A DNA stretch of 64,000 nucleotides from Akkermansiaceae bacterium UBA7890 (GCA_002501065.1 DLRK01000196.1:133048-197047); one strand, 5' to 3'. Shown: positions 3,121 through 60,177, counted from the first letter of the stretch. The notes: generated by a model not told the origin, from the letters alone. Translations and numbers: made by a program.

Positions 3121-3134
3121 TTGATTCAAATCAA
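3121..3134. promoter_or_regulatory. FNR/FixK/Dnr-type box, perfect TTGATtcaaATCAA
   Basis: Perfect TTGAT-N4-ATCAA palindrome, intergenic. Its centre is 44.5 bp upstream of the DUF1800 ATG (3083, minus). On the minus strand a -10-like TAGATT ends 6 nt before that ATG, and no Shine-Dalgarno is visible. Confidence 0.65.
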
Positions 3135-3394
3135 AAGACGTGAAAATCTCCGATTCGGACAGCATCGAGGGATACGGAGTGCAAATCCGGAACAGTCCCG
3201 CGAAAGCGTCCCATCTTCCTGAAACCACGGGGCTCCCGTCCCGGTCCCAGGCGCGGTCGCTGGGGGATGGAAATCACATCAAATCACGATCGCCCGGGGC
3301 ACACATTTCGATTCGTCAACCCACGTCGCCGGGCAGTTCATGACGCTACCCGAGTGCGCCATGAATGTCTTTTTCCGGTCACTCGCCGGCATTC

Positions 3395-3670
3395 TTACTC
3401 GTGCTGGGTATGCTCATCCCGCCGGCACCAGTCCAGAAAGTCATCCCAGGATCTTTCGTCTGCTTCGGACAGGTCCTCGTGAATCGCGGCCGCGACTCTC
3501 TTCCCGGCGCCGGCGACGGCGGCCAGGATCACGGTGGTAGTCCCCGTCACGGCATCGCCGCCCGCATAGACGCGGCGGTGAGTGGTGAGGCCCTTCTCTT
3601 CCTCGACGATAGCCCTTCTCTTGCTGGCTTCGTGAGTTGCATCCGGGCAATGCCAAGCCCCTAAGCCGCT
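3395..3670 (-). pseudogene. C-terminal remnant of a GltD-like / pyridine-nucleotide-disulfide-type FAD oxidoreductase
   Basis: Hand translation of the minus frame between TGA (3671-3673) and TAA (3395-3397) gives SGLGAWHCPDATHEASKRRAIVEEEKGLTTHRRVYAGGDAVTGTTTVILAAVAGAGKRVAAAIHEDLSEADERSWDDFLDWCRRDEHTQHE. It contains the C-terminal FAD motif (VYAGGDAvtG ... AAG.RVAAAI). There is no Met/start, and only ~165 bp remain before the upstream gene, so the N-terminal ~350 aa of such an enzyme is missing. Confidence 0.4.
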
Positions 3671-3807
3671 TCACGCTTGGAACAGTTCCGGCGCGTGTGG
3701 AACGATTCACCCTGATCTGCCACACATTAATGAGGGATTGAGCCCGGAAGCTCTGGACCCAAGTCAATCACTTCCTGGAAACTGCTCTACAATTCCGCTG
3801 TCCCCAA

Positions 3808-3825
3808 CCTCCGGTTGACCGGAGG
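3808..3825 (-). terminator. Possible stem-loop downstream of the 1240-aa gene
   Basis: CCTCCGG-ttga-CCGGAGG: 7-bp perfect GC-rich stem with a 4-nt loop, 15 nt after the stop at 3840. No U-tract follows. Confidence 0.3.
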
Positions 3826-3839
3826 GGCAGGATGGCCTT

Positions 3840-6800
3840 TCACCTCCCCAGCAGATTGACGGCCCGGACGGTACGGGTGCGTTCCTCGATTTCAGGTGGC
3901 AGGTGTCCCTTGAACCAGGCCTTGGCCCGGTAGCGAAACTCATCGCCGTGGGGAAGGAACTTGAGGGGCGGGATGCCTGCCGCGAGGGGAAGTCGGTCTT
4001 GCGTGGTGGCGTGAGGGTCTTCGTGACAACCGACGCAGGACTTCATCTCACCTGGCCGCGTGTAGATCCAGGTGAGCTGGTTGCCGACCACCCGCCGGTC
4101 GCTGTCGAGGACCTGAAAGTGAACAAGCCGGTCCGCCGGTGCCTCGATGTAGAAGGAGCCATCCGGAAGAAGCGGAGCGGTTCCCAGAACGCGAGCGTGT
4201 GTCCCCCCGTGGTTCGTCCAGACCGGTCCGGTGTTGGTATGAGTACTGTGCCGTCCCACCACCGGCACGCCTTCGATCAGGCGAACAAGTTTGCCCCGCT
4301 GGGTCACTTTCTTTTCCCTGGTAGTGAATACGGAAGCACAGAGAAAGCGTCCGCTGTAGGCGCGTGGCAGGGTGCTGGCGGGCAGGACGGGCGGACGGCG
4401 CCGGGGAAGGATCGGACGGGCTTCGAACTCCGCGGCCGCCGGGTCGTTATAGAGGAGGGTGAGTGTCCTTGAAGAGGGATCGAATACATACAACCCCAGG
4501 TCAACTTCCCTGCGGTGGGGTGTTTTGAGAGTCGAAGCGCAGAGCACCCGGCCGTCAGGAAGCGGATATGGGGTGGTGTAGGAGCGCGTTGCGTTGTCGG
4601 GCGAAATGATGGTCTCACTATCTCGCCGAGGTCCAATCAGAGTGAGCCCACCCTGGGTGACGGTGATGATATTCCGGGAATCGGGCATGGGCTGGGGTTG
4701 GGTCATGCGCAGGACACGGTGAGTCAGCGGCGCTTCCTGTCCATCGGCCGGGGTGCGCGGACCGTGGTCCAGGTTCCGCCAGTAAGCCCGCCGCTCCGGA
4801 CCATAGAGGACGACGTCCTTCGTGCCGTCCGGCCGGACCGCATGCAGGGTCAGTTCGGTCTTGTTCCTCGAATAAAATACATCCAAACGGCTGAAGACGA
4901 TCCGACCGTCGGGCAGGATCGCGGGTTCGTTGTCGCGTCCGATATTGGTGGCGATCGGGCGCATGTTGCCGCCGTCGGCATCCATAACCCACAAGGCGGT
5001 GCACGGGTAGCCATGGTATTCGTCACGGATTCCACTGCGGGTGGTGGCGAAGGCGATGTGACCGTCCGGCAGGTAAACCGGCCCCACATCGTGGTAGGGG
5101 CCCTCCGTCAGTTGTTCCAATCCCGATCCATCGAGATTGATCCGAAAGAGGTGCCACCATGGATCGTCTTCACCGCGGTGGGCGAAGATCGCGTGCGAGG
5201 CATCCCACGAAAGTTCAAGGTCGCCTACGTAACCGCCATCAAAACTGGTCAGGGGGACCACTTCACCGTCCGGCCGGGCGGGTCGCAGAACATGGAGATT
5301 TCGTCCTGGCCGGTAAACCGGACCCGAGTCGGTTACGACATAGGTCTGCCTCCAACGGTCCGCCTGCTCGACCGTGCCAATGGTATTGGGAATGTTGTTG
5401 CTGCCCTTGATGAACACCACTCCATCTAAGGTGCTGGCTTCAGAATCGGGATTGCCTGTGGATCCGGGTGGGGGAGAGGGTTCAGGTTTTAGCTTCTCGC
5501 CCGGGGGCAGTTCAACGCCGTGAATGCGAAGAGCGTCCCTCGAAATGTGCCGCACACTGTGAAAGGAATGATGAGTCGCTGCTTTGCGTAGAGCAGTCAG
5601 AGCTGCTTCGTTGCCCAGGTCGCCCAACGCCTCCGCAGCGGCATGACGAATCTCCAGGACGGATTGCTCATCGTTGAGAATGCGGACAAGCAGGTCGGTG
5701 TGGCCGTGCGCATCGAGCAATCCGAGCGCCCGGATCAGTCCTTCGCGCCATCGGGGCGCCGGATCGTCGTATTCTTCGTTCTTGAATGTGGAATTGTAGC
5801 CATAGTCCGCTTCGGCCTTTGCTTCGGACAGAAGCCTGGCGATCGGATCGATGGCACGCTGGTCGCCGAGCCAGGCCAGCGTCTTGGCGGCATTGATCCG
5901 CACCCAGCCTTCTCCGTGCTGCAGGAGCTCCAGGAGCCGGGGTAGATCCTCCTTCTCGATGCAAACCGCCGGCAGCCAGCTCGCCATCCGGGAATCCTTG
6001 AAGATAGGCCAATCCACGGTCTCGTTCGATCCCGCCACCCGCCGGACCTGGCCCAGTCGCTGCATGGCATGCTCGCACGCTTCCTGCCGGAGCCCCGATT
6101 TTTTCATCAGGTAACGCGTCAGCAGATGCCCGACTTCCGGCTCGTAGAGCATGAAGGTGTCGTGGTCGCCCGGCAGATTGGCCATCAGCTGTGGGACGAT
6201 CCGGCGGAGTGCCATAAGGTCCCGGGGGGCATCCAGGGGCAACCGACAGAGTGCGTAGGCGATGGCGTAAGGGGTTTCCAACATTCGATCCTCACTCGGA
6301 AACCCCATTCTGTCGTCTTGCGGGACTCGTGCCGGATTACGGCCGTCCGGTTTCTTGGCGTAGCGGGGATAGGCGGCGAGAAGGGCGGGCACAGCCCGGT
6401 GATCCCCAAAATCCCCCAGGGCCTCCGCGGCGTGCCGGGCCCACTGCGTGTCATCCAGAAGCTGGATCAGGAACTGGAATCCGACTTCTTCCCGCAACCG
6501 CCCCAGGGCGCGGATTCCGGCCTGCATCATTGGTCCGTGGGGTTTGGCAGGTGCCCGGTTCAGACATTCAATGACCGCTTTGCTGGCCCCCCGCCCGCCC
6601 AATGCTCCCAGCGCCCGCAGGCCCCGCTCCCATCGCCATGCGGCGGCCGAGGCGATTTCATTTCCCGCATTGGGTTGGCCGTTGACTTCGATCTCGAAAA
6701 AGGTGGTGGGATAGGTCGAATTCTTCGAACCGAAGGAGGTGATGCGGATATAGCGAGCCTGGTGGGGGGGGAAGTCGATGGTCAACTTGACGGGCGATTC

Positions 6801-7562
6801 GCCCTTCCTGCGTTCAACGCGGTTGAAACTTCGATTATCGAGGCTGGTGGCCACTTCGTAGTCGGTCATCACGAACTGCGGGCCGTATTGGTGAATGACA
6901 AGATTTGCGACCTGCTCGACCCGCCCCAGATCAACGGTGCACCACTGTGGCAGAGGAACATTCTTGGTCTGCCAGTAATCGGGACCGATCAATCCGTCAC
7001 CCAGCAGCCGGGCCGGTCCACGGTAGGTTGAGGAGGCCGTGATCGTCCACGTGCTGGTTGGGGGGTTCGAGTCTTCGAGCAACTTCAGGACATCCGCTGG
7101 CGGTCGGTCGGCGGGCACTCCGGCCCACCAGTGTCGCCACAGGTTGACCTGCGCTTCGCGTTCTTCCACCGGGGCCAGGGCATTCAGTGGGAATTCCATT
7201 CCGGACAGATTGTTCAGGGCCACATGGGCCGACTGCCGGGTGACCCAATCCTCATCCTGCAGGGCGAGAAGAAGTGGGGGGATGGCCTTCCGGCTCCCGC
7301 ACCATGCCAGCGCCATCGCAGCCTCCCGTCGAACCAGTACCGATCGATCAAGCAGGCCCGAGATCAGGGGTTCCTCGGCTTCATAGGCCCGCAGGAATCC
7401 CAACCCTTCCGCCGCTCCGGCGCGGGTCCGTGGCGAGTCTGAGTCAAGTTTCGTCACCTGCTCGGCCACCTGGCGAGCGAAGGGTGATTGCATCTTCTTT
7501 TCGGCTCCGGGGCATTGTCCCACGGCCAGGCAGACCAGTAAGAGTTCGATCGAGACTTTCAT
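3840..7562 (-). CDS. HzsA-related beta-propeller c-type cytochrome, paralogue 1 of 8: HEAT repeats + F5/8 type C (discoidin) + HEAT + PD40-like propeller + single CxxCH
   Basis: 1240 aa, ATG start, signal MKVSIELLLVCLAVGQCPGA. HEAT-like repeats: SPRTRAGAAEGLGFL, VLVRREAAMALAW, DWVTRQSAHVAL, GWVRINAAKTLAWLGD, LEIRHAAAEALGDLG. Discoidin block: YWQTKNVPLPQWCTVDLGRVEQV...ARYIRITSFGS...FFEIEVNG. Propeller: INLDGSGLEQLTEGPYHDVGPVYLPDGHIAFATTR, ILPDGRIVFSR. Family haem block: GTAPLLPDGSFYIEAPADRLVHFQVLDSDRRVVGNQLTWIYTRPGEMKSCVGCHED. The protein ends ~60 aa later and lacks the second HCxxCH module. Confidence 0.8.
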   Translation of the reverse strand: MKVSIELLLVCLAVGQCPGAEKKMQSPFARQVAEQVTKLDSDSPRTRAGAAEGLGFLRAYEAEEPLISGLLDRSVLVRREAAMALAWCGSRKAIPPLLLALQDEDWVTRQSAHVALNNLSGMEFPLNALAPVEEREAQVNLWRHWWAGVPADRPPADVLKLLEDSNPPTSTWTITASSTYRGPARLLGDGLIGPDYWQTKNVPLPQWCTVDLGRVEQVANLVIHQYGPQFVMTDYEVATSLDNRSFNRVERRKGESPVKLTIDFPPHQARYIRITSFGSKNSTYPTTFFEIEVNGQPNAGNEIASAAAWRWERGLRALGALGGRGASKAVIECLNRAPAKPHGPMMQAGIRALGRLREEVGFQFLIQLLDDTQWARHAAEALGDFGDHRAVPALLAAYPRYAKKPDGRNPARVPQDDRMGFPSEDRMLETPYAIAYALCRLPLDAPRDLMALRRIVPQLMANLPGDHDTFMLYEPEVGHLLTRYLMKKSGLRQEACEHAMQRLGQVRRVAGSNETVDWPIFKDSRMASWLPAVCIEKEDLPRLLELLQHGEGWVRINAAKTLAWLGDQRAIDPIARLLSEAKAEADYGYNSTFKNEEYDDPAPRWREGLIRALGLLDAHGHTDLLVRILNDEQSVLEIRHAAAEALGDLGNEAALTALRKAATHHSFHSVRHISRDALRIHGVELPPGEKLKPEPSPPPGSTGNPDSEASTLDGVVFIKGSNNIPNTIGTVEQADRWRQTYVVTDSGPVYRPGRNLHVLRPARPDGEVVPLTSFDGGYVGDLELSWDASHAIFAHRGEDDPWWHLFRINLDGSGLEQLTEGPYHDVGPVYLPDGHIAFATTRSGIRDEYHGYPCTALWVMDADGGNMRPIATNIGRDNEPAILPDGRIVFSRLDVFYSRNKTELTLHAVRPDGTKDVVLYGPERRAYWRNLDHGPRTPADGQEAPLTHRVLRMTQPQPMPDSRNIITVTQGGLTLIGPRRDSETIISPDNATRSYTTPYPLPDGRVLCASTLKTPHRREVDLGLYVFDPSSRTLTLLYNDPAAAEFEARPILPRRRPPVLPASTLPRAYSGRFLCASVFTTREKKVTQRGKLVRLIEGVPVVGRHSTHTNTGPVWTNHGGTHARVLGTAPLLPDGSFYIEAPADRLVHFQVLDSDRRVVGNQLTWIYTRPGEMKSCVGCHEDPHATTQDRLPLAAGIPPLKFLPHGDEFRYRAKAWFKGHLPPEIEERTRTVRAVNLLGR

Positions 7563-7695
7563 GAACTGCAGACGCTCCAGCCGCTGCGGGACGCCGGGGT
7601 CACCAGGTCGTCGGTGCGCAACCGCCTCGGAGAATTGAGTCTACGTTGCGTAATGGCCGGGATCACCAGGGGTCGACCTTTGGAATGCCTAAGCT

Positions 7696-7709
7696 ATGAC
7701 CTGGATCAA
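7696..7709. promoter_or_regulatory. FNR-type box, one mismatch (aTGACctggATCAA)
   Basis: Intergenic, centre 140.5 bp upstream of ATG 7562 (minus). It matches TTGAY-N4-RTCAA except at position 1. The spacer 'ctgg' is the same as in the box at 60164. Confidence 0.35.
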
Positions 7710-7858
7710 TTTGCGATCCGGGGGCTTCGGTGATGCCTGAACACGTGATGTGCTTCCTTTGACCCGGGTGGAATTGAGACCGGCGAACCCTTCCCCAGTG
7801 TTCTGTTCTTCTGTCCCTCTGCCGGAATGCGCCCGTTCAGCAATTCGTATCCAGAGCC

Positions 7859-9343
7859 CTACTCAAAGGCGTAGAGCGTGCTCTCGGTGCGCAGGTAGAT
7901 CCGGTTGCCGACCAGGGCAGGCGTGGCGTCGATACGTTCCTCAAATGCAGTCCGGTGCAGGATTTCGGGCTCCTTCCCGCCCGCCTTCACCACGGTGAGA
8001 TCGCCGTTCGTTGAGGCCAGATAGATTCTTCCATCCGCCGCCACCGGAGAGGTGTAGTACTTGCCACCCCCACCGATGCGCTTTCGACTGTAGTGTGGTT
8101 CACCCGTCTCGGCATCGAGGCAGGACAGGAGGCCACCGTCGCGAACGAAATAGAGCCGGCCGTCATACAGGAGCGGTGATGATACGTAGGGCAGTCCTTT
8201 GGTGAACTTCCAGTTCACGTGTGTCTTCGTGATGTCACCCTGGCCTCCCGGTTCAACCGCGATGGCCATGTTCTCACCTTCGGCGGAACGCCTCTTCACC
8301 TTGACCCAGTCCGCGCCCGTGATCCTGCCGTCCTTGTCGAGATCCAGGCCCTGGTAGAAATCAAGGGCCTGCCCCTTGAACTCGTCCATGGAGATTTCGC
8401 CGTCCATGTTGCTGTCGTGCTGCTTCCGGAACTCCGGCCAGGAGGGCCAGGGGCTGTCGCTGGCACCGTAGGACCAGGCCACGAAGAAGAGTCGCTTGTG
8501 ACCGACGACCGGGGTGGTGCAGGCAAAGGCCGCGAGGCCATCGACCATCCATCGCTCTTTGCCCGTCTTCAGGTCGTAGCCTTTGAGACGCACCGATCCG
8601 GGAATCACGACCTGATGGTGCCCGGCGTTGTTCCAGATGATGGGCGTGCCGAAACTGCCGTATCCATCGGGACGAGGCGTTACCCACACCTTTTTTCCGG
8701 TTCTTACATCCAGGGCCAGGAGCTTGGCGTCGATGAGCTGGTCGCGATTCAGGATGACGAGATTTCCGGTGATGATGGGCGAGGAGCCGGATCCGAAGTC
8801 GCCGGCACTGCGGGTGATGGTCATCGGATGGCGCCACAGTTCCCGGCCGTCGAAGTCGTAGCAGACGAGACCGGTGGAACCGAAGTAACTCACCACATGC
8901 GTTCCGTCGGTGGCCGGAGTGGGGGCGGCGGGGCTTCCTTCGCTTCGATGATAGACTTCCAGTTTCTCGGGCTTGATCCCCCTGGTCCAGAGCAGGTCTC
9001 CCCTGGCCCGGTCGTAGCAGCAGGTCCTGAGTTCGCCTTCGGCAAAGGTGGTGAGAAAGATCCGGTCACCCCAGACACAGGGAGAGGAGGGCGATCTCGG
9101 CACCTCCTTCTTCCACAAAACATGCGAGGCAGGGCCGATCTTCAGGGGCGGCTTGGAATCATGGGCGACTCCGGAAGCATTGGGACCACGGAACTGCGGC
9201 CAGGACGCGCTCTCTTCCGCTGCGATCCACGGGCACGGGAGCAGCAGGAGGGCTGCGAACAGCACGTTCCTTGACGAGTGAGGCGGTGTTATCCACGCGT
9301 TGCAGATCCCAAGTGACCGCCCGGAAGCAAGGCTCGTTCTCAT
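7859..9343 (-). CDS. PQQ-like (BamB-type) beta-propeller repeat protein with inserted EF-hand pair
   Basis: The ORF 7859..9367 starts at TTG; the first ATG is at 9343 (MRTSLASGRS...LFAALLLLPCPWIAAEE, signal-like). Motif SWPQFRGPNASG plus repeated propeller strands (LLWT, GDRIFLTT, GNLVILN, GRLYFVRDGGLLSCLDAETGE, GRIYLASTNGDLTVV). The EF-hand pair DSNMDGEISMDEF ... DLDKDGRITGADW is inserted between blades. Confidence 0.75.
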   Translation of the reverse strand: MRTSLASGRSLGICNAWITPPHSSRNVLFAALLLLPCPWIAAEESASWPQFRGPNASGVAHDSKPPLKIGPASHVLWKKEVPRSPSSPCVWGDRIFLTTFAEGELRTCCYDRARGDLLWTRGIKPEKLEVYHRSEGSPAAPTPATDGTHVVSYFGSTGLVCYDFDGRELWRHPMTITRSAGDFGSGSSPIITGNLVILNRDQLIDAKLLALDVRTGKKVWVTPRPDGYGSFGTPIIWNNAGHHQVVIPGSVRLKGYDLKTGKERWMVDGLAAFACTTPVVGHKRLFFVAWSYGASDSPWPSWPEFRKQHDSNMDGEISMDEFKGQALDFYQGLDLDKDGRITGADWVKVKRRSAEGENMAIAVEPGGQGDITKTHVNWKFTKGLPYVSSPLLYDGRLYFVRDGGLLSCLDAETGEPHYSRKRIGGGGKYYTSPVAADGRIYLASTNGDLTVVKAGGKEPEILHRTAFEERIDATPALVGNRIYLRTESTLYAFE

Positions 9344-9368
9344 GCCGCGAGCATAGCGATCCGGCAAG

Positions 9369-9385
9369 CCGGGTCAATGACCCGG
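9369..9385. repeat. 17-bp perfect palindrome CCGGGTCA-a-TGACCCGG in a divergent promoter region
   Basis: 8-bp arms with a 1-nt centre. It lies 26 nt upstream of ATG 9343 (minus gene) and 121 nt upstream of the sulfatase ATG 9506. Confidence 0.3.
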
Positions 9386-9505
9386 ACGATGGGGGATGGC
9401 CCCGGAATGGGCGGCCTCTGAAACGGAGTCGCCTCATCGAGCGACACAACTCCTTTACAAACAGGCTCTCGTGATCACGATTTGGTCGGAAGGAGAGACA
9501 AATCC

Positions 9506-11092: not shown

Positions 11093-11101
11093 GGGGCTGG
11101 G

Positions 11102-12442: not shown

Positions 12443-12456
12443 GGTTCAAGGTGGTT

Positions 12457-13365
12457 CTAGAGTTGGCTGGCGAGCCTGATCAGGTGAGCCCGCGATTTCC
12501 TGAGAGCTGCGCTGGTCTCGTCTGGAGCGGGTTCGTGGTGCAGGAAGGGGTTGAGCGGATACTTGAAATTGACCTCCTTGAGCGCGGCGAGGAGTGGTTT
12601 GAAGTCGACCGGTCCGATTCCGGGCAACTGGTTGGTGGAGCTGCCTTTCTGCCATCCATACACGTAGAGCAACTGGTCGCCACAGGTCCGGATGACCTGC
12701 GCTACATCGGCCTTCCAGCTTTGCAGATGATACGGGGCCAGTGCGATTCCGATACGTGGATTGTCATTGAGATCGACGAATGCCTTGAAGGAATCCGGCG
12801 CGTCGAGCAGGGCGTGGCTGTGGTTTTCGATGGCCAGAAACGAGTTGTTCTTCTCCGCCAGCTCAGCGAGGGGTTTGAGGGTTTCCAGAAACGCCTTCAT
12901 CTCGTTTCGGATGTCCTTGGGATTTCCTCCCCGGGAACCCTGTACCGCCACCCCCCCACCACAGCCACCCAGCAGACCGGCGTACTTGGCAAACCCGCCC
13001 GCATAGACCGAAAAGGAGTAGAGATCGAGCCGATGTTTCTTCAGCAGGGCCGTGAGTCCTTCGTGTCCAAGACGATTCAGGCAGTCATCCAGATGGGGAC
13101 AGCCCGCGTGAGCACTCCAGATGTCGATGGCATCGAAGCCGAGCGAGGCAATGCGCGCTACCGCCTGCTCGATAGGGAGGGACGAGAAATTAATGGACGA
13201 ACAGGAGAGGCGCATCGCCCGTTTTCCGGGGTCATCGGCACCGGCGCTTCGCGGCGCGTGCACCAGGGCCGAAAGCCCGGTCGTGGCCAGGGTCATGCGT
13301 TTCACAAAGCGACGACGTGTTTGGCGTTCCTGGCGGATCAACCCTAATTGTGGTCTGTTCGTCAT
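12457..13365 (-). CDS. Sugar phosphate isomerase/epimerase (xylose isomerase-like TIM barrel) with twin-arginine signal
   Basis: 302 aa. ERQTRRRFVKRMTLATTGLSALV (Tat). Motifs: GFDAIDIWS, FLAIENHSHALLD, PFLHHEP. Confidence 0.75.
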   Translation of the reverse strand: MTNRPQLGLIRQERQTRRRFVKRMTLATTGLSALVHAPRSAGADDPGKRAMRLSCSSINFSSLPIEQAVARIASLGFDAIDIWSAHAGCPHLDDCLNRLGHEGLTALLKKHRLDLYSFSVYAGGFAKYAGLLGGCGGGVAVQGSRGGNPKDIRNEMKAFLETLKPLAELAEKNNSFLAIENHSHALLDAPDSFKAFVDLNDNPRIGIALAPYHLQSWKADVAQVIRTCGDQLLYVYGWQKGSSTNQLPGIGPVDFKPLLAALKEVNFKYPLNPFLHHEPAPDETSAALRKSRAHLIRLASQL

Positions 13366-13442
13366 GGGTCAGGTGGGAGCTGTGGGACCTACCTGCGCCA
13401 GGGGTATGGTTTGTCGATGAGGCAGATCTAACAGTGCGCGGT

Positions 13443-13456
13443 TTGACTTGAGTCAA
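13443..13456. promoter_or_regulatory. FNR-type box TTGACttgaGTCAA
   Basis: Perfect 5+5 palindrome with a 4-nt spacer in the divergent intergenic region. Its centre is 84.5 bp from ATG 13365 (minus) and 117.5 bp from ATG 13567 (plus). Confidence 0.55.
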
Positions 13457-15807: not shown

Positions 15808-15821
15808 TTGATCAGGATCAA
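15808..15821. promoter_or_regulatory. FNR/FixK/Dnr-type box, perfect TTGATcaggATCAA
   Basis: Lies in the 139-bp gap between paralogues 2 and 3, centre 42.5 bp upstream of ATG 15857. A -10-like GAGAAT ends 8 nt before that ATG. Confidence 0.6.
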
Positions 15822-15856
15822 GGAATTCCCGGGGGGACAGGGGAGAATAACAAGTT

Positions 15857-28669: not shown

Positions 28670-28683
28670 TTGATCGAAGTCAA
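28670..28683. promoter_or_regulatory. FNR-type box TTGATcgaaGTCAA
   Basis: Lies in the 347-bp divergent region between the paralogue 6-5-4 operon (ATG 28484, centre 192.5 bp away) and GH32 (ATG 28832, 155.5 bp away). Confidence 0.5.
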
Positions 28684-31798: not shown

Positions 31799-31820
31799 GC
31801 TCTTGATCAAGATCAAGAGC
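31799..31820. promoter_or_regulatory. FNR/FixK/Dnr-type box, perfect TTGATcaagATCAA (31803..31816) inside a 10+10 bp palindrome
   Basis: GCTCTTGATC-aa-GATCAAGAGC. The box centre is 74.5 bp upstream of the ric ATG (31735, minus) and about 294 bp upstream of the ctaA ATG 32103. Confidence 0.65.
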
Positions 31821-34099: not shown

Positions 34100-34113
34100 T
34101 TGACTTGCGTCAA
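34100..34113. promoter_or_regulatory. FNR-type box TTGACttgcGTCAA
   Basis: Perfect 5+5 palindrome in the 122-bp gap, centre 98.5 bp upstream of ATG 34008 (minus). Confidence 0.5.
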
Positions 34114-35777: not shown

Positions 35778-35791
35778 CTTGACTTGAATCA
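35778..35791. promoter_or_regulatory. FNR-type box TTGACttgaATCAA
   Basis: Intergenic. Its centre is 41.5 bp upstream of ATG 35826 and 95.5 bp upstream of the better-supported ATG 35880. The spacer 'ttga' is the same as in box 13443. Confidence 0.55.
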
Positions 35792-35825
35792 AGAACTATC
35801 GGGAGCTCCTCGTCGTTGCTTCTGA

Positions 35826-50981: not shown

Positions 50982-50995
50982 TTGATACAGATCAA
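50982..50995. promoter_or_regulatory. FNR/FixK/Dnr-type box, perfect TTGATacagATCAA
   Basis: Lies in the 98-bp gap between the heparinase-like stop (51047) and ATG 50948, centre 40.5 bp upstream of that ATG. A -10-like TAGCTT ends 4 nt before the ATG on the minus strand. No SD is visible. Confidence 0.6.
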
Positions 50996-54190: not shown

Positions 54191-55552
54191 TTAAATGGGG
54201 TTGCCCTGTCCGGGATTGGGAATGGGATACTGGTTGTCTGCATCGGGTCGGACCGGGGCGTCGGAAGCCCAGGTGCAGGCATCGAGCCCGGGCGCCAGTT
54301 CGTGATCCGAGGCGAGGGCTTCTTCAAATGTCACTTCCCGGCCGGACTCCGCGGCCATCCGACCCATGATGGCGGTCATGGCGGCCCTGGCACAGCGGTC
54401 GGTTTCGTTGTAGGGATTGTTCTGGCGAATCGCCTCGAAGAAGAGGTCGTGCTCATGTTGGTAGGCATTCTTGGCCGTCCCCTTGTGCCGCCAGATCACG
54501 TTCTCGACCTTCTCGTCGTGTCCACGGCAGATACGGGGTTTCGAGACGCCCTCGCCGAGGGTGGCGCTACCGGTCGTTCCGTGAATTACGTCTCCAAAGT
54601 GGTTCCAGGTGTTGGGGATGTGGCGTCCCTGGGCGAACATGCGGGTGCCGTCCGCAAAGCGGTATTCGACCGCGAAGTGGTCATACATCTGGTCCGGCTG
54701 GGAGCGAACCTGCCGACCTCCCTGGCCCTGCGCGGAGACCGGCCAGGCATTCTTGACCCAGCAGCACACGTCGATGTTGTGAATCAGCCAGTCCACAATG
54801 AAGCTGCCGTTCAGCCAGGTGAAGTTGCTGTAGTTGGCGATCTGGTGGGCAAGTTCGCTCATCCCGGATTGCTTCGGTTTGAAGCCGACCGGTCCATGCT
54901 CGCGGTAGGCCCAGCACGTGATGATGTCGCCGATGGCGCCATCGTGAATGCGGCGAATCGCTTCTTCCAGCGGCGGGGAGTGACGGCTCATCAGTCCGCC
55001 TGCGATCTTCAGGTTCTTCCTGTCAGCTGCTTCGCCGGCCCGCAGGACCCGCCGGATACCAGGCCCGTCCACCGCAAACGACTTTTCCATGAACACGTTA
55101 CACCCGTGATTGACCGCATATTCGAGGTGAATGGGCCGGAAGGCCGGGGGAGTGGTCAGAAGCACCACGTCCGCCTCGCCCAGCAGGTCGATGGCCGACT
55201 GGTAGGCGTCCATCCCAAGGAAACGGCGCTCCGGTGGAACCTCGACCTGCTTGGGGAACTGTGCGCTGATGGACTTGAGGCTGCTTTCAAGGCGGTGTTC
55301 GAAGACATCCGCCACCGCCCAGAGTTTGGTTGGTCCGCTGGTCTTTAGCGCATTGAAGGCGGCACCGGTACCACGTCCCCCACAACCAACGAGGGCGACC
55401 TTGATCGTATCGTCACCTGGGGAAGCCCCTTGAGCAAATCCTGGCGCCGTGGCGGCACCCATCAGACCCGCCGCCGCAGCACTCTTCCCGGTGTTTTTGA
55501 GGAACGTTCTGCGGGATGGATCGGTCTCAATGACAGTATTAGTTGGTTTCAT
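54191..55552 (-). CDS. Gfo/Idh/MocA family oxidoreductase with twin-arginine signal
   Basis: ATG 55552 gives MKPTNTVIETDPSRRTFLKNTGKSAAAAGLMGAATAPGFA (Tat). Rossmann motif IKVALVGCGGRGTGA. FIVDWLIHNIDVCCW parallels the gene at 11102..12442. Confidence 0.85.
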   Translation of the reverse strand: MKPTNTVIETDPSRRTFLKNTGKSAAAAGLMGAATAPGFAQGASPGDDTIKVALVGCGGRGTGAAFNALKTSGPTKLWAVADVFEHRLESSLKSISAQFPKQVEVPPERRFLGMDAYQSAIDLLGEADVVLLTTPPAFRPIHLEYAVNHGCNVFMEKSFAVDGPGIRRVLRAGEAADRKNLKIAGGLMSRHSPPLEEAIRRIHDGAIGDIITCWAYREHGPVGFKPKQSGMSELAHQIANYSNFTWLNGSFIVDWLIHNIDVCCWVKNAWPVSAQGQGGRQVRSQPDQMYDHFAVEYRFADGTRMFAQGRHIPNTWNHFGDVIHGTTGSATLGEGVSKPRICRGHDEKVENVIWRHKGTAKNAYQHEHDLFFEAIRQNNPYNETDRCARAAMTAIMGRMAAESGREVTFEEALASDHELAPGLDACTWASDAPVRPDADNQYPIPNPGQGNPI

Positions 55553-55598: not shown

Positions 55599-58085
55599 TC
55601 ACAGTTGGTTCGGCCGGTACCACAGAGATTTCCAGTAGGCCTGGTCGAGGGCGTAGGGATCGAGGAAGGACTTTTCGCTTTGATTCGCGGGCAGGATTCC
55701 ATAGCGCTTCATTTCCCTCAGATAGTCATCACGCGGACGGAACCCCGGCATGTCGAAGCGCTTGATGGTCTCGAGGTGAAACTTCGCGGCGCGCACGACC
55801 GCGAGCAGTTTCTGGTAATCGGGGTCTTCCGTGTCCGTGAACACCGAAGCGACCTGGCCCTTTGCCTCGCCCTCCCTCACCCTGCAGAGGCCCAGTCCCC
55901 CGGCCTCCTTTGCGAGAGGCGCGAGGATGAGAGGAGATTTCTGCGGGCGAGTCAGATTGTAGACGATATGGCGGGAGAGGCGCAGTTTGAGATCGTCTTC
56001 CTGAAGCGCCCAGGGCGGAAAGCGATCCACGGAGGGAGTTTCGGGCAATGCCGTGGGTCCGGAGTGGCACTGCTGGCAGCGCCGGTTGATTGCGGCCCGG
56101 CCGTCGCCCACGGCGGGCCAGGAGAAGTCCGCATGATTGCTCCTGTTTTCTTCGTAGCCTCCGATCATGCCAGTCCCAAGAGCGGCATAGGTGCCGGGGT
56201 AGGGGGCGCCGGTGTCGATCCAGAGGGCGAGCATCCTGCGCTCATGCTCGCTGACCTTGGCGCCATAGTGGCTGCCGTCAGACTTCTGGATCAAGGGGCT
56301 GGCAGAGGATCCGATCGTGCGGGGCGCGTAGTTGCTTCGGGGCCGGTTGCGGCCGTCCACGAATTGTCTTCGCACCGTCAGAATGTAGTAGCTGTGGGAG
56401 TAGAGCGGACCCCGGTCACCGGTGAGGATCACGTCGCCTGCCCGGGGACCGCCGTGCTCTGTCGCTTCGTAGTCGTGACAGGCCACGCAGTGCCTATCGA
56501 GAATCGGCTGGATGTCCCGTGGGAAATCGAAAACGTCAGGCGTTCCGGGGATAGGCTTGATCCGGCTTGCCGGGCGCCGCAGGGCGGCCAGATCGGGAAT
56601 GGGGAGGGGAGTGCGTGTGCGTTGTTCATGACATCCGACGCAACTGGTGACCTCGCCCGGCTGCACGGTAGTGAAGCTCTGCATGCGCTTGACCGACAGG
56701 CCGTCTTTGTCCCGTGCCACGAACAGGACACTGCGAAGGGCGGGCAGTTCCAGGTAGGCCGAGCCGTCTGGCTCGACCGGGACGGAGCCGAGAACCCGCT
56801 GCAGAGTGAAGGTGCCACCGTAACTGAGTGGCTCCATGCCACCGGTGTAGTTGATCGGCTTGGGCAGCGTTTCCAGGACCAGCAGGTCCTTGATCTCACC
56901 GCGCTCGATTCCGCTCATGTTGCGGCCCTCGTAGATATCGGCGAGGATGAGGCGGCCGGTGTCCTGTTGAGGTTCCGCCCTGGATGGAATCACGTGCTCG
57001 CGCTCACGGGGCCGGATCGGCCGCGGTTCGTGACACTGCAGTCCAGCCGCCCGGTCGGATTCGGGCAGTTGATAGATGGTCCGCACCTGTCCGTCTCCAT
57101 CCATCACCATCAACTCCGTTCCCCGTGCCACGAGGAAGTGATCCGGCTCGAGAGCGTATGGATCGCGAAAGTTGTTGTCCTTGTTGAGTATCCGGGCCGA
57201 GGGGAGATGATCCGGTCCCATCCCCGGATCCACAATTGCGACGGCCCCATTGTGTTCACGGCGACCGTGCGAGGGAGAGAAGATTGCCACCACCGTGTTC
57301 CCTCCCGGGATCGGTTTGGCGTCGATCATGACAATGCCGGGATGCTGGTTGCCGTAGAACACCATCTGTCCGGTCCCGTCCGGATTGGCAGTCCAGAGAT
57401 GGTGGTAATGCACCTGGCTGCGATCGATGTATTCCCAGCGCTGATAGAGGATGCGCCCGTCGGGCAGAACCCATGGCGTGTTGTCGTGCTCGTTGTTGCT
57501 GGAAATCATGCGGATGTTTCCGCCTTTGGCATCGCAGCGGTAGAGCACCGCGACCTGAGTCAGCCAGCAGTTCACCCAGCGGTTGCAGCGGCTCGAACAG
57601 AACATGATCCCGCCATCCGGCAGGTAAGTGGGTTCGATGTCGTCGCAATCGCCGTCTGTGAGTTGCTTCAGTCCGGTGCCGTTGATGCCGATCTCGTAGA
57701 GATGGAAGTGAGTGGAGCTGCCCTTGCGGTAGGCGAAGAGAATCTTCTTCCCGTTGTAGTGAACCTGAGGATCACGGATGCTTCCCTTCCCGTCCTCCAG
57801 CAGAACGGTGAGCGTCCCGGTCCGGGGGTCGAGGCGGCAGAGTTTGCCTCCCCCGTCGGAGTAGGCCATCCGGTCCGTGTCCGCTGCATAATAGCTGAAA
57901 TTCGCGTACCAGTGTCCATCCTTGCCCGGCTTGCGTACCGCGAAGACGAGATCGTCCGTAATTCCGGACCCGGGTGATTCAGTTCCCTGGAGACTGCCGC
58001 CCAGGAGAGGGAGAAACAGAACCAGAAACAATCCGAGCCATCCTGGACCAGGTTTTGTTTCTGCCACTCTATTACTCCTGATCAT
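55599..58085 (-). CDS. HzsA-related beta-propeller c-type cytochrome, paralogue 8 (short type, 3 CxxCH)
   Basis: 828 aa with a signal-like N-terminus (WLGLFLVLFLPLLGGSLQG). Blades: FHLYEIGINGTGLKQLTDGDCDDIEPTYLPDGGIMFCSSR, LPDGRILYQRWEYIDRSQVHYHHLWTANPDGTG. Haem block: GSVPVEPDGSAYLELPALRSVLFVARDKDGLSVKRMQSFTTVQPGEVTSCVGCHEQ. Additional modules: IQPILDRHCVACHD, RCQQCHSG. It is closest in layout to paralogue 2. Confidence 0.85.
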   Translation of the reverse strand: MIRSNRVAETKPGPGWLGLFLVLFLPLLGGSLQGTESPGSGITDDLVFAVRKPGKDGHWYANFSYYAADTDRMAYSDGGGKLCRLDPRTGTLTVLLEDGKGSIRDPQVHYNGKKILFAYRKGSSTHFHLYEIGINGTGLKQLTDGDCDDIEPTYLPDGGIMFCSSRCNRWVNCWLTQVAVLYRCDAKGGNIRMISSNNEHDNTPWVLPDGRILYQRWEYIDRSQVHYHHLWTANPDGTGQMVFYGNQHPGIVMIDAKPIPGGNTVVAIFSPSHGRREHNGAVAIVDPGMGPDHLPSARILNKDNNFRDPYALEPDHFLVARGTELMVMDGDGQVRTIYQLPESDRAAGLQCHEPRPIRPREREHVIPSRAEPQQDTGRLILADIYEGRNMSGIERGEIKDLLVLETLPKPINYTGGMEPLSYGGTFTLQRVLGSVPVEPDGSAYLELPALRSVLFVARDKDGLSVKRMQSFTTVQPGEVTSCVGCHEQRTRTPLPIPDLAALRRPASRIKPIPGTPDVFDFPRDIQPILDRHCVACHDYEATEHGGPRAGDVILTGDRGPLYSHSYYILTVRRQFVDGRNRPRSNYAPRTIGSSASPLIQKSDGSHYGAKVSEHERRMLALWIDTGAPYPGTYAALGTGMIGGYEENRSNHADFSWPAVGDGRAAINRRCQQCHSGPTALPETPSVDRFPPWALQEDDLKLRLSRHIVYNLTRPQKSPLILAPLAKEAGGLGLCRVREGEAKGQVASVFTDTEDPDYQKLLAVVRAAKFHLETIKRFDMPGFRPRDDYLREMKRYGILPANQSEKSFLDPYALDQAYWKSLWYRPNQL

Positions 58086-58146
58086 GCTGCCGGGGCTTCT
58101 TGATTGGTTTATCCAGGAAGCCCGTTGGGGTGGTCGATTTCCGGTT

Positions 58147-59967
58147 TCAGAGTGACTCGACGAACTCGATGAGATCGGTGATCTCCTCCGGGGTAAGATC
58201 GGTGGTCACGCCATGTTCGTCGTCAGCGTTGAACGTCGTGACCACGTCACGAATCGAAGTGGCGCGTCCATCATGCAGGTAGGGGCCGTTGCGCCAGATT
58301 TCGATCAGGGTCGGCACGTCATATTTCATGTTCTTTTCCAGGTTCACCCCCGTGCCGATATCGTAGCGCTTCATGTTGGTGTAGAGGGGAGGCTTGTGAC
58401 AAAGGGCGCAGTTGGCCTTCTCAAAGACCTTTTTTCCCCGTAGCGCCGCCGGGCTGAGTTGCCCCTTCACGAGACGGGGGCTGGGCACCTGTTTGAGCGA
58501 CTTCAGGTATTCGTCGATGGCCACTGCGTCACTCTCAGGACGCACCGCCATGAAGAATCGGATTCCAGCCCGGACAGAGATCTCGGCATTGGCGCGCACC
58601 GCGGTCGCAGTAGTGGGCGGTGTCTGGTGGGCCAAAACGAGGCTCTTGGTGTTCTTCGGGGTTCCCAGGCCATCGTTGAGGAGATCCCAGTTGAGCGCAT
58701 CGGTGCGGTCACTGGGATGGCAGCTGACGCAACTCTGCCACTGCTGAAAACACCACGAGGCGTCCTTGAAGAGAAACTCGCCGCGCCGGACCACGGTCAT
58801 GGGCGGGACTTCACCAAGAGCGACCGAAGTTGAGCGAGGGTCACGCTGCGTGTCGAGATCGATGATGCCGATGCTGTCGGAGAAATACTCGGCAGTGTAG
58901 AGTTTCGAACCCACCATCACCAGTTCCCGAGGGCCGAGGCCGGAGAGTTTTACACGCTGCCGTAATCCCACCATGAAGCTCAGATCGTTCGGAATGTTCT
59001 CCGGGGGGTCCGTGGCCAGCTTTTCATGCAGCGCCACGCGATCAATGATGCTCACTTCATGGCTCCCGGAATGAGTCACGGCGAGAACCTTGCCGTCGCT
59101 CGTGCAGGCCACGCCCCATGGGTTGGCTGCTCCCCGGTCGACATTGTCCAGCAACACCGCGTTGACCAGTTTCAGATTGACCGCATCGATGACACTCAGG
59201 GCGTTGGTGTTCACCCATCCGCGCTCCAGTTGAGTGGCGGGCACGTGATAGCGACCAATCGTATGAGTGGCATACACGTGGTTGCCGTCGGGAGACAGGC
59301 ACAGGCCGTTCACTCCGGTAGATCCGTTGTGGAGCGGGATCGAGGTGAGCAGTTTCTTGGCCTTGGTATCGATCACGCTCAACTCCGCGGCCGCGAATGC
59401 TCCGTTGGCGGGGCCAGCCGGTATGTGATTGGCGACGAAGAGACGCTGGCCGTCCGGGCTGAGAACCGCTGCCACGGGCTCTCGCGCCACCGGAACAGAC
59501 GCCAGTTCTTTCCCGGAGCCCAGATCGATGAATGCGACGCGATTGTTGAAGCGATTACACACATACAGGATCCCGCCCTCCGGACTGATCGCCAGCGCAC
59601 TGGGGGTGTGTCCCACCGGAATGATGTTGACGATCTTGCCGCTGGCAGTGTTCACCACCGCGATCCGGCCCTCCGGTTCCCCGAGGGCGACGTAAAGCCG
59701 GGAAGCATCCGGGCTCAAAACGAGGTCGGCAGGGGTTCCTGGCACCGGGATTGTCCTTTTGACACTTCCGGTCTCAAGGTCGAATGCGGCCACTTGCTGT
59801 GTCGTGGTCTGCGCGATGTAAAGCGCCACTCCTCCACTGTCGGCACAGAGTGCGGAAGGCGAACGATAGGTCGCGTCCTCCGCTGCTCCTGCCAGCAGCA
59901 ATCCCGTCGCCAACCAGACCGACACGATTCCCCGGGTGATTCCGCTCGTCCTCTTCGCTTGTTTCAT
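58147..59967 (-). CDS. YVTN/YncE-type beta-propeller fused to a di-haem cytochrome c peroxidase/MauG-like domain
   Basis: ATG 59967 gives MKQAKRTSGITRGIVSVWLATGLLLAGAAEDA; in-frame ATGs at 59973 and 59982 are also possible. Propeller repeats: LYVALGEPEGRIAVVN, HTPSALAISPEGGILYVCNRFNNRVAFIDL, EPVAAVLSPDGQRLFVANH. CCP-like half: SCVSCHPSD ... NCALCHKPPLY ... NGPYLHDGRATSIRDVV. Confidence 0.8.
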   Translation of the reverse strand: MKQAKRTSGITRGIVSVWLATGLLLAGAAEDATYRSPSALCADSGGVALYIAQTTTQQVAAFDLETGSVKRTIPVPGTPADLVLSPDASRLYVALGEPEGRIAVVNTASGKIVNIIPVGHTPSALAISPEGGILYVCNRFNNRVAFIDLGSGKELASVPVAREPVAAVLSPDGQRLFVANHIPAGPANGAFAAAELSVIDTKAKKLLTSIPLHNGSTGVNGLCLSPDGNHVYATHTIGRYHVPATQLERGWVNTNALSVIDAVNLKLVNAVLLDNVDRGAANPWGVACTSDGKVLAVTHSGSHEVSIIDRVALHEKLATDPPENIPNDLSFMVGLRQRVKLSGLGPRELVMVGSKLYTAEYFSDSIGIIDLDTQRDPRSTSVALGEVPPMTVVRRGEFLFKDASWCFQQWQSCVSCHPSDRTDALNWDLLNDGLGTPKNTKSLVLAHQTPPTTATAVRANAEISVRAGIRFFMAVRPESDAVAIDEYLKSLKQVPSPRLVKGQLSPAALRGKKVFEKANCALCHKPPLYTNMKRYDIGTGVNLEKNMKYDVPTLIEIWRNGPYLHDGRATSIRDVVTTFNADDEHGVTTDLTPEEITDLIEFVESL

Positions 59968-60163
59968 AAACATGATTAACATGAATAGGATTACCGCCAC
60001 CAGCGTCATTAGCGTTGGAAGCGTACACTTCGCTATAAGAAAAACAGAAAGGCTCTTTATCCGTGAGACTCGACTAATTGACCTCAAGTTGTTCTGGGTC
60101 AAAACACCGCCAGGTGAGGGGAGGATCAAGATCTGCTGAACCGGGGTTAAAAGTTCCCAGACC

Positions 60164-60177
60164 TTGATCTGGATCAT
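60164..60177. promoter_or_regulatory. FNR-type box, one mismatch (TTGATctggATCAT)
   Basis: Lies in the relatively AT-rich divergent region. Its centre is 60.5 bp upstream of GTG 60231 (87.5 from ATG 60258) and 203.5 bp from ATG 59967 (minus). Confidence 0.4.

Follow-up and report, generated by a model that had tools for sequence, protein, structure and literature searches.

HZS_alpha-type dihaem cytochromes have no known function outside anammox bacteria (PMC12758564), and a 2025 survey found no experimentally characterised relative. Eight such cytochromes of a globally distributed marine Verrucomicrobium are encoded in the 64-kb stretch of DNA analysed here (the window), and they have one common predicted operator, the palindrome TTGAYNNNNRTCAA (TTGAY-N4-RTCAA). 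The locus therefore raises the question of which regulator acts at this palindrome and to which signal it responds.

By exact search, eight perfect copies of the palindrome were found across the window, whereas dinucleotide shuffles of the window gave an expectation of 0.21 and a maximum of 2; with one mismatch allowed, there were 15 matches against 4.7 expected. The original prediction had placed the motif before nearly every operon, and these counts bear it out; its assumption of ~60% G+C was right because the measured value is 0.58-0.63. In a gene map assembled from GC3, Pfam and public gene calls, intergenic DNA makes up 3773 bp (5.9%) of the window, and all eight perfect copies fall within it (p = 1.5e-10 under uniform placement), in agreement with the claim that coding sequence holds no exact copy. 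Four one-mismatch copies are also intergenic, two of which (7696 and 60164) had been predicted, while those at 60089 and 3754 are additional. Seven of the eight predicted full-match coordinates were exact; the other, 35778, was off by one and is corrected to 35779. The sites and their neighbouring genes are as follows:

3121..3134, perfect site TTGATTCAAATCAA; centre 44.5 bp upstream of ATG 3083 of the left DUF1800-DUF1501 pair (minus strand)
3090..3095, minus strand, -10-like hexamer TAGATT; at -12..-7 from ATG 3083, suggesting a leaderless transcript
3754..3767, one-mismatch site TGGACCCAAGTCAA; inside a 756-bp gap, with TACAAT 20 nt further on the plus strand; may be a chance match or a relic
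7696..7709, one-mismatch site ATGACCTGGATCAA; 140.5 bp upstream of ATG 7562 (HEAT/F5-F8/HZS_alpha protein, 1240 aa)
13443..13456, perfect site TTGACTTGAGTCAA; divergent region, 84.5 bp to the TIM-Gfo operon (minus strand, start 13365) and, on the opposite side, 117.5 bp to an HZS_alpha cytochrome gene (plus strand, start 13567)
15808..15821, perfect site TTGATCAGGATCAA; 42.5 bp upstream of ATG 15857 (HZS_alpha cytochrome, then BNR_4)
15843..15848, plus strand, -10-like hexamer GAGAAT; predicted transcript start at or 1-2 nt before ATG 15857
28670..28683, perfect site TTGATCGAAGTCAA; divergent region between a three-HZS_alpha operon (minus strand, start 28484 or 28583) and GH32 (plus strand, start 28832)
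31803..31816, perfect site TTGATCAAGATCAA; 74.5 bp upstream of RIC (ScdA_N+hemerythrin; minus strand, start 31735), with ctaA (start 32103 or 32181) as the divergent partner
34100..34113, perfect site TTGACTTGCGTCAA; 98.5 bp upstream of a DsbD_N-like gene (minus strand, start 34008)
35779..35792, perfect site TTGACTTGAATCAA; 40.5 bp upstream of ATG 35826 (HZS_alpha ORF), with Lcl_C (start 35603) as the divergent neighbour
50982..50995, perfect site TTGATACAGATCAA; 40.5 bp upstream of ATG 50948 (enolase-superfamily protein, minus strand)
60089..60102, one-mismatch site TTGTTCTGGGTCAA; 86.5 bp upstream of start 60009 (minus strand)
60164..60177, one-mismatch site TTGATCTGGATCAT; 60.5-72.5 bp upstream of the right DUF1800-DUF1501 pair (plus strand, start 60231 or 60243)

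Several of these genes head operons. The HZS_alpha gene at ATG 35826, which public callers begin 39-54 nt downstream (at 35865 or 35880), is followed by a 1506-aa ThuA/DUF7133/cupredoxin protein; the enolase-superfamily protein at 50948 carries a TAT-like GRRRFVK and heads a cupredoxin / DUF7133-DUF6807 / ThuA operon (minus strand); and the gene at start 60009 encodes a beta-propeller+CCP-like protein, followed by the HZS_alpha gene 55599-58085 (minus strand). Among about 12 promoter-bearing intergenic regions, 8 contain a perfect site, two (7563-7858 and 60010-60242) contain one-mismatch sites only, and two (9344-9505 and 30805-31054) contain no site. Within 10 kb beyond the window edges there are three further perfect palindromes, each intergenic and upstream of a gene start, and the genes behind them are a DAO-URO-D-DeoC-FGGY-FeADH-RhaT operon, another HZS_alpha gene and a beta-helix protein.

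The motif also emerges without prior knowledge of its sequence. When all 4-N-4 inverted dyads in 17 intergenic regions were counted without bias, TTGA-N6-TCAA ranked top with 8 regions, whereas the best unrelated dyad and the null maximum both reached 3. Similarly, when a PWM derived only from palindromes of unrelated metagenome loci, with no window sites, was applied to the window, the top 13 positions were all intergenic (scores 24.9 to 10.3), and the highest coding match (9.8) scored below all window sites; at inner positions 6 and 7, both sets prefer C/T in the same way. As in FNR-type operators, the sites are 14-bp inverted repeats of the form TTGAT-N4-ATCAA or a close variant. TTGAC does resemble the -35 hexamer recognised by sigma-70, and the intergenic DNA is somewhat richer in A+T (0.576 G+C), so a general promoter element, a repeat or an accident of intergenic composition had to be considered. 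However, both arms are kept as a strict 5-4-5 palindrome, only 0.0056 palindromes are expected in shuffled intergenic DNA, and the centre lies at -41.5, not -35. In addition, the motif co-occurs with one regulator family over 80 independent loci, and it is missing from three loci of other lineages, of 24 kb, 19 kb and 16 kb, in which related genes of the HZS or ThuA families occur. An origin without a regulator is thus effectively refuted.

The position of the sites relative to the start codons gives a clue to how they may work. A site centre 39.5-44.5 bp from the start codon was found in 23 cases, 4 in the window and 19 at other loci, and the distance distribution is sharp, with 20 start codons in the 37.5-42.5 bp bin and 2-5 in adjacent bins. 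In these 23 cases, the bases T-15 (13/23), G-14 (16/23), A-11 (16/23) and T-7 (17/23) relative to the start codon form an extended -10 (TG-n-A-nnn-T) in register with the sites, and a separate -35 element is absent. This combination of distance and register implies class II activation of leaderless mRNAs: at four or more window promoters, about 41.5 bp separate the centre of the site from the first base of the start codon downstream, and the transcript of such an activator-dependent class II promoter would begin at the start codon itself. Relative to these predicted transcription starts, the sites occupy the promoter location and the class II position (-41.5) of FNR-type operators. In keeping with this, of the 33 gene starts mapped in the window, two of them mis-set, only 7 are preceded by a Shine-Dalgarno-like sequence. 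An Rfam search of the window returned no known RNA.

On the other hand, only 4 of the 8 perfect window sites lie at the class II distance, and among these four the -10 hexamers of 35779 and 50982 are weak or shifted. For the sites 13443, 28670, 31803, 34100, 60089 and 60164, no convincing -10 was found at class II distance; at the remaining promoters the site is 60-190 bp from the start codon, and these could be promoters of class I or class II that have a 5' leader. The lack of a recognisable -10 at 13443, 28670, 31803 and 34100 would also suit a repressor operator, at which transcription is blocked until a signal releases the regulator, and some CRP/FNR members do repress at certain promoters. 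We consider this very unlikely, since the sharp peak at 39.5-44.5 bp from the predicted +1, together with an extended -10 and no -35, is the arrangement of an activator-dependent class II promoter, and the characterised FNR, DNR, NnrR and HcpR mainly activate at such sites (PMC1274295). Activation is therefore the reading followed below.

The original prediction had assigned the island to a CRP/FNR-family regulator, and comparison with relatives strengthens this assignment. In three relatives (L014, L017 and L018), a 241-aa CRP/FNR-family gene lies beside an orthologous HZS_alpha or RIC gene, each with the palindrome. In L014, whose orthologues are ~80% identical to the window proteins, the regulator P0241 (cNMP_binding+HTH_Crp_2) adjoins HZS_alpha and CCP genes, and three perfect palindromes precede the orthologue of the 15857 HZS gene (by 46.5 bp), CCP (by 61.5 bp) and the regulator itself (by 147.5 bp). 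In L017, the palindrome lies in the divergent region that separates the regulator from HZS_alpha+FGE, and in L018 it lies upstream of RIC-hemN. When the regions upstream of the 15857 gene pair in the window and L014 were aligned, the palindrome was the best-conserved block between diverged flanks, as expected of a footprint; the corresponding alignment with L017 (HZS+FGE gene) gave no information, since the sites lie at different positions in the two regions. RIC homologues proved unsuitable for footprinting, the next best being 71% identical and from other phyla.

Beyond these relatives, 80 metagenome loci with regulator homologues (444.6 kb) contain 43 perfect palindromes against 0.9 expected. 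The genes behind them include qNOR (x3), NirK-cytochrome c (x2), Hcp, YgbA (x5), cupin (x5), radical-SAM/HemN (x2), hemerythrin, an Fe-S assembly protein and cytochrome c, as well as RIC (x3, in L018, L046 and L072), including RIC downstream of ygbA. In the homologue loci, the operator thus stands before NO-metabolism genes, the set (nir, nor, hcp, ytfE/dnrN, ygbA, nnrS) that marks the N-oxide-responsive class of DNR, NnrR and HcpR; in the window, the only member of this gene set is RIC. The association of the motif with HZS genes is lineage-specific, since the motif is absent from the distant HZS_alpha loci L011, L015, L016 and L101; in L015, L016 and L101, which carry other HZS orthologues, the regulator is likewise absent. 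A scan of genome contigs for the 1506-aa protein yielded four relatives (61-70% identity) in different gene contexts, two with one perfect motif each and one 24-kb locus with none, and was uninformative. The eight HZS paralogues were too divergent in alignment to seed such a scan.

The regulator clade is conserved in Verrucomicrobiota, and its proteins of ~240 aa have a cNMP-binding-like sensor domain and HTH_Crp_2. The recognition helix is GTVSETLSRT, whose core SETLSR is of the E--SR type, with R180 of CRP replaced; FNR and DNR use this helix for TTGAT half-sites (PMC1274295). The residues C22, H84, H144 and C172 are invariant in both the main clade and the island-linked subgroup (P0241, P0243, P0244), although the two are only ~60% identical. 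None of the characterised sensors is matched in full. Compared with the E. coli FNR sequence, the N-terminal Cys cluster is absent and Cys122 aligns with Leu, and C22 and C172 are the only clade-invariant cysteines. In E. coli FNR, the [4Fe-4S] ligands are Cys20, 23, 29 and 122. Because the cluster ligands Cys16/20/23/29/122 are absent, a [4Fe-4S] oxygen sensor is impossible here. CRP is marked by the cAMP-contacting residues Arg82/Ser83, an RE--R helix and the site TGTGA-N6-TCACA. In the clade, by contrast, the helix is SETLSR rather than RETVGR, the spacer of the site is 4 bp long and its position 3 is T, and Arg82/Ser83 align with an invariant GYPAD stretch (the register is approximate at the residue level). 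The NCBIfam equivalogs FtrB, Fnr, FixK, FnrL and NtcA all scored below cut-off (best FtrB, 82-84 bits against 211). The best PDB matches, 3fx3 and 3h3z, carry no deposition title more specific than 'cyclic nucleotide-binding protein', and the best functionally characterised match is DNR (3dkw, E 4e-20). In the phmmer alignment with 3dkw, His187 aligns with the invariant Glu195 and His139 with Arg146, the invariant His144 lying two residues upstream; in DNR, the two histidines are the haem ligands, with the role of His139 given by PMC8510549.

Based on the results presented above, the palindromes are probably operators that a homodimeric CRP/FNR-superfamily factor binds to co-activate most of the island, with nitric oxide and/or low oxygen as the likeliest signal. 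Since the site of this one regulator lies at most promoters, most of the island would be switched on together: the eight HZS_alpha-type cytochromes and a fused beta-gamma-like partner, the ThuA/Gfo/TIM/cupredoxin oxidoreductases, GH32, the DUF1800/DUF1501 pairs, RIC and the DsbD_N-like gene. The palindrome thereby suggests a link between the HZS-like cytochromes and a response to NO or low oxygen. Because the sensing residues match neither FNR nor DNR, the inference of the signal rests on guilt by association, and the content of the regulon makes nitric oxide and/or oxygen limitation the most likely candidate.

The earlier addition that this response replaces simple carbohydrate induction goes beyond the data, as plain sugar-catabolic operons also belong to the regulon. 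For the same reason, the regulator may be broad and global and not specific to the island, and a second layer of control may act on the island operons. The same operator and family could even serve a CRP-like global regulator of carbon or energy state, with another effector; the signal would then have shifted in a Roseibacillus-like lineage, and polysaccharide and sugar oxidation would be under its control. Most regulated genes are indeed carbohydrate-like (Gfo/Idh/MocA, xylose-isomerase-like TIM, ThuA, GH32, enolase superfamily), as is the DAO-DeoC-FGGY-RhaT operon, the 84 kb contain no sugar-specific local regulator, and the subgroup has diverged from the main clade to the extent given above. 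However, the CRP residues that contact cAMP are absent, the four invariant Cys and His residues are common to both groups, and the main-clade targets are NO and denitrification genes; moreover, within the subgroup, P0244 adjoins RIC-hemN, Rrf2 and globin genes, and RIC of the window bears a site. A carbon or energy signal is therefore possible but unlikely, and NO or oxygen limitation is retained as the preferred signal.

Among known systems, DNR (P. aeruginosa, P. stutzeri and beta-proteobacterial orthologues), an NO-responsive CRP/FNR activator with the box CTTGATnnnnATCAAG, shares the 5-4-5 FNR-type palindrome, the E--SR helix, the lack of an N-terminal Cys cluster and, in the homologue loci, the targets nirK and norB. 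It differs in phylum, in its low identity and in the His187 position, here an invariant Glu; moreover, the present regulon reaches HZS_alpha cytochromes and sugar-oxidation genes, and many of its promoters are apparently leaderless. HcpR (Geobacter, Desulfuromonas, Desulfotalea), predicted to control hcp and nitrosative-stress genes, has an FNR-like box, wyTTGACnnnnGTCAArw, before hcp and frdX. Its half-site preference (TTGAC/GTCAA) is nearly identical, and in L072 Hcp lies directly behind the regulator with a site between them, but hcp is absent from the window and the regulon here is much larger. The class II promoters of E. coli FNR (-41.5) agree in the TTGAT-N4-ATCAA consensus, the position relative to the -10 and the E--SR helix. 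Unlike FNR, the clade has no Cys cluster ligands, and whereas E. coli promoters give leadered mRNAs, the +1 here would fall on the start codon. NnrR of alpha-proteobacteria and FixK2 are likewise CRP/FNR members without a Cys cluster, controlling nir/nor or micro-oxic genes; the NnrR box ctTTGcgnnnncgCAAag differs at positions 4-5, and FixK is under an upstream two-component system.

No CRP/FNR gene was detected in the window and 10 kb on each side (84 kb; phmmer with E. coli FNR and CRP against all ORFs), and tblastn with five clade members revealed no remnant there, including in the 756-bp gap (3084-3839); no other transcription factor genes were found in the 84 kb. The regulator is presumably encoded in this genome outside the 84 kb read, and the negative result agrees with the original prediction that its gene lies elsewhere. 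The closest database relatives, P0242-P0245, were rejected as this organism's own regulator, each being confined to a single contig and derived from another organism, and P0319 is of forest-soil origin. The collection indexes proteins of the source organism in 65-174 blocks, but each protein found with 65% or more identity to P0241 was confined to one contig. Contig counts in the homologue table are unreliable as a marker of abundance: RIC is given 1 contig in that table, whereas exact look-up places it in 174 blocks. This organism's regulator may be a more distant member of the clade that shares the helix.

The regulator is of a type already known, the CRP/FNR family, and it is the regulon that is unusual. 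In other genomes, the cognate family is predicted to control NO reductase, nitrite reductase, Hcp, YgbA and RIC, so that the regulator offers a biochemical handle on the HZS_alpha cytochromes. The model would be the first of a Verrucomicrobiota regulon together with its putative promoter architecture (class II site, extended -10, leaderless start), and no published equivalent was found in the literature searched. A bolder and rather improbable extension is that the cytochromes and their fused partner themselves transform N-oxides, with NO, hydroxylamine or nitrite as the substrate. In marine Roseibacillus-like Verrucomicrobia, NO or low O2 would then induce them via a DNR/HcpR-like regulator, and periplasmic sugar oxidation (ThuA, Gfo, cupredoxin) would supply them with electrons. 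If true, it would reveal an unrecognised nitrogen-cycle module, with leaderless class II promoters, in an abundant heterotroph. Cytochromes with an HZS_alpha domain occur widely, both within the PVC superphylum and outside it, and the homologues of one window paralogue were 56-81% identical.

An exact search of the window for TTGAYNNNNRTCAA returned eight matches, compared to 0.21 in dinucleotide-preserving shuffles, and 15 matches were found against 4.7 expected when one mismatch was allowed (window G+C approximately 0.61). The gene map, which combines a GC3 filter, Pfam scans and public gene calls from identical contigs, leaves 3773 bp (5.9% of the window) as intergenic DNA. All eight exact sites are located there, with a probability of 1.5e-10 under uniform placement, and shuffling the intergenic DNA alone yields 0.0056 expected sites. 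When all 4-N-4 inverted dyads were counted without regard to the motif, TTGA-N6-TCAA ranked first, occurring in 8 of 17 intergenic regions; the best unrelated dyad reaches 3 of 17 and the null maximum is 3. The original prediction that an FNR-type palindrome (TTGAY-N4-RTCAA) marks the promoter regions is confirmed in this respect; seven of its exact coordinates stand, the eighth moves by one base from 35778 to 35779, and its one-mismatch copies at 7696 and 60164 were recovered together with two additional ones.

Candidate operator sites in the window:
3121, 13443, 15808, 28670, 31803, 34100, 35779 and 50982: exact palindromes, intergenic
7696, 60164, 60089 and 3754: one-mismatch palindromes, intergenic

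Approximately 12 intergenic regions need a promoter: eight contain a perfect site, two contain only a one-mismatch site, and two, upstream of the sulfatase/PQQ-propeller pair and of a small PAS gene, contain none. TARA Oceans and many more metagenome assemblies include long contigs with proteins identical to those of the window, and the NCBI entry for the product of gene 15872-18202 is a hypothetical protein from a 'Roseibacillus sp.' MAG. Overlapping contigs (L004 and L007) add approximately 10 kb to each end of the window, and three further perfect sites are present there, all intergenic and 5' of gene starts. Their targets are a DAO-URO-D-DeoC-FGGY-FeADH-SGL-RhaT operon, another gene for a hydrazine-synthase-alpha-like cytochrome (HZS_alpha), and a beta-helix protein.

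No transcription factor gene of any family was found among the approximately 45 genes of the resulting 84 kb. A phmmer search of all ORFs with E. coli FNR and CRP gave no match, and tblastn with members of the regulator clade described below detected no remnant. The genes of this region are mostly related to carbohydrates or redox reactions, and the absence of a transcription factor is unusual for such clusters; the sole sensor-like gene encodes a stand-alone PAS_4 protein of 118-142 aa (30376-30804), downstream of the gene for RIC, an ScdA_N and hemerythrin protein.

The candidate regulator was instead found beside orthologous genes in relatives. Contig L014 (G+C 0.62) was reached through homologues of window gene 15857; its Gfo, HEAT-HZS and HZS proteins share 79-82% identity with those of the window. 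This contig encodes a 241-aa protein with cNMP_binding and HTH_Crp_2 domains (P0241, L014:12948-13673), and its gene adjoins those for a dihaem cytochrome c peroxidase and two HZS_alpha proteins. Three perfect palindromes are present on L014, upstream of the 15857 orthologue (by 46.5 bp), the peroxidase gene (61.5 bp) and the regulator gene (147.5 bp). When the upstream regions of 15857 and its L014 orthologue were aligned, the palindrome was the most conserved block. On contig L017, a regulator 86% identical to P0241 shares a divergent, site-containing region with an HZS_alpha and FGE-sulfatase orthologue. On L018, the regulator is 77% identical, a site lies upstream of a RIC-hemN operon, and the neighbours include Rrf2, globin and radical-SAM genes. 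Such genes, together with the palindrome, beside orthologous loci support the reading of the sites as operators of a CRP/FNR-family regulator. Every database homologue sharing 65% identity or more with P0241 derives from one contig only, and from an organism other than that of the window, though the latter is abundantly assembled. Judged from the conservation between L014 and L017, an orthologue in that organism is expected to be approximately 90% identical. The role may be filled there by a clade member that is less closely related but shares the recognition helix.

Scanning metagenomes with the regulator alignment gave 80 loci, 444.6 kb in all, whose regulators are 55-62% identical. In these loci the perfect palindrome occurs 43 times, where 0.9 occurrences are expected. 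With a PWM built from the metagenome-locus sites only, 13 intergenic positions of the window outrank every coding position, and both sets of sites favour C/T in the same way at inner positions 6 and 7. The genes directly 3' of the motif in the 80 loci are the following:
quinol NO reductase (3), NirK fused to cytochrome c (2), Hcp
YgbA (5), small cupins (5), DGC-domain proteins (2), radical-SAM proteins (2)
a hemerythrin, an Fe-S assembly protein, cytochromes c, TauE, UbiA, DUF488, a porin

This is the gene set of DNR, NnrR and HcpR, the N-oxide-responsive CRP/FNR regulators. In two loci RIC follows ygbA, and in L018 it precedes hemN in one operon. The window RIC gene (31055-31735), with a site 74.5 bp upstream, is a direct link between the core N-oxide regulon and the island. 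RICs with annotations from Planctomycetota, Acidobacteriota, Gemmatimonadota and other phyla match its product at 65-71% identity. Because no homologue falls between 71% and 100% identity, the sequences suggest that the RIC gene is horizontally mobile.

The regulator family is strongly conserved in Verrucomicrobiota, with 826 database matches at approximately 58-65% identity, several of which carry the JGI label 'dissimilatory nitrate respiration regulator'. The recognition helix, GTVSETLSRT, is of the E--SR type when aligned with VETISR of E. coli FNR and RETVGR of CRP; this type is correlated with T at half-site position 3 (Rodionov et al., PMC1274295). Neither the FNR cluster cysteines nor the cAMP-contacting Arg82/Ser83 of CRP are present in the regulator alignment. 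In the PDB, two unnamed cyclic-nucleotide-binding proteins match best and P. aeruginosa DNR comes next (E 4e-20); His187 of DNR aligns with an invariant Glu and its His139 with Arg, an invariant His lying two residues upstream. Given these alignments, and with no NCBIfam equivalog cut-off reached, the regulator is assigned to the CRP/FNR superfamily but is predicted to lie outside every characterised subfamily. All aligned clade members share C22, H84, H144 and C172 (alignment A2); these are candidate ligands, fitting neither the FNR cluster nor the DNR haem ligand set.

The promoter geometry was analysed with 58 distinct perfect sites and start codons opening an ORF of at least 80 aa. Start codons cluster 39.5-44.5 bp from the site centre; the 37.5-42.5 bp bin holds 20, and adjacent bins hold 2-5. 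Anchoring 23 promoters on the start codon reveals T-15 (13/23), G-14 (16/23), A-11 (16/23) and T-7 (17/23). This pattern is read as an extended -10 element with +1 at the first base of the start codon, which would centre the palindrome at -41.5, canonical for class II. The simplest reading would be activator-dependent promoters without a -35 element that produce leaderless mRNA. Four window sites bear on this geometry:
3121, ATG at 3083: TAGATT at -12 to -7; fits
15808, ATG at 15857: GAGAAT; fits, and the ORF begins with a proper signal peptide, MVKFLMVAGL
50982, ATG at 50948: fits, followed by a TAT-like GRRRFVK
35779, ATG at 35826: weak hexamer TTGCTT; poorer fit, gene callers preferring 35865 or 35880

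At the other window sites, 60-190 bp from start codons, no convincing -10 element was found. Of the 33 window gene starts that were mapped (two of them mis-set), only 7 have a Shine-Dalgarno-like sequence. Since such starts are few and many motif-dependent promoters let +1 coincide with the start codon, this verrucomicrobial lineage may often initiate translation on leaderless mRNAs or independently of SD sequences. Some of these starts seem to be overlooked in public gene calls, e.g., 15872 is picked over 15857.

Textbook FNR/DNR biology accounts for the operator, the E--SR helix and the class II geometry, and DNR (CTTGATnnnnATCAAG) and delta-proteobacterial HcpR (wyTTGACnnnnGTCAArw) match most closely. 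What appears to be new is a verrucomicrobial regulator clade predicted to lack the FNR and DNR ligand sets, apparently leaderless class II promoters, and the putative recruitment to the regulon, in a Roseibacillus-like lineage, of at least ten operons encoding HZS_alpha cytochromes, a fused beta-gamma-like partner and sugar-oxidation proteins. Literature searches found no published description of the regulon. Its content points to NO and/or low O2 as the signal, and the earlier proposal of control by low oxygen or N-oxides is supported overall; an island regulon and a global regulator are each possible. An induction experiment can now directly probe what the HZS-like cytochromes do.

HZS-alpha homologues outside anammox bacteria were without characterised function in a 2025 study, which found them paired with fused beta-gamma homologues (PMC12758564). 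The same arrangement occurs at window 55599-60009 (minus strand), where a 620-aa beta-propeller and CCP/cytochrome c gene (58147-60009) lies directly upstream of an HZS_alpha gene (55599-58085), the pair standing behind sites 60089 and 60164. On the aquifer contig L022, a regulator homologue is 2.3 kb from an FG-GAP/HZS_alpha-like/beta-gamma-like cluster (9147-14337), near which only a one-mismatch site is present, before a DUF2249 gene. HZS_alpha loci of more distant lineages (L011, L015, L016 and L101) have neither motif nor regulator. Twin-arginine-like N-termini (RRxF[LV]K) are seen in several predicted oxidoreductases, namely the Gfo, xylose-isomerase-like TIM, enolase-superfamily, second Gfo and DUF1501 proteins (window 11102-13365, 49671-50948, 54191-55552 and 61792-63078). 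These N-termini suggest that the sugar-oxidation proteins, together with the cytochromes, reach the periplasm by export.

At a distance of 20 nt behind the one-mismatch site at 3754, the plus strand reads TACAAT, which would point antisense into gene 3840-7562. The 756-bp stretch 3084-3839 has no Pfam or Rfam match; its reverse strand at approximately 3430-3620 resembles what we take to be an FAD/NAD(P) oxidoreductase C-terminus (VYAGGDAVTG...), possibly a gene remnant. Finally, divergent promoter regions often carry paired sites approximately 55-57 bp apart (L046:9619/9674, L072:3568/3625, L082:6157/6213 and L096:252/308), apparently one per direction, e.g., one towards ygbA and one towards the regulator gene; the window pair 60089/60164 is spaced by 75 bp.
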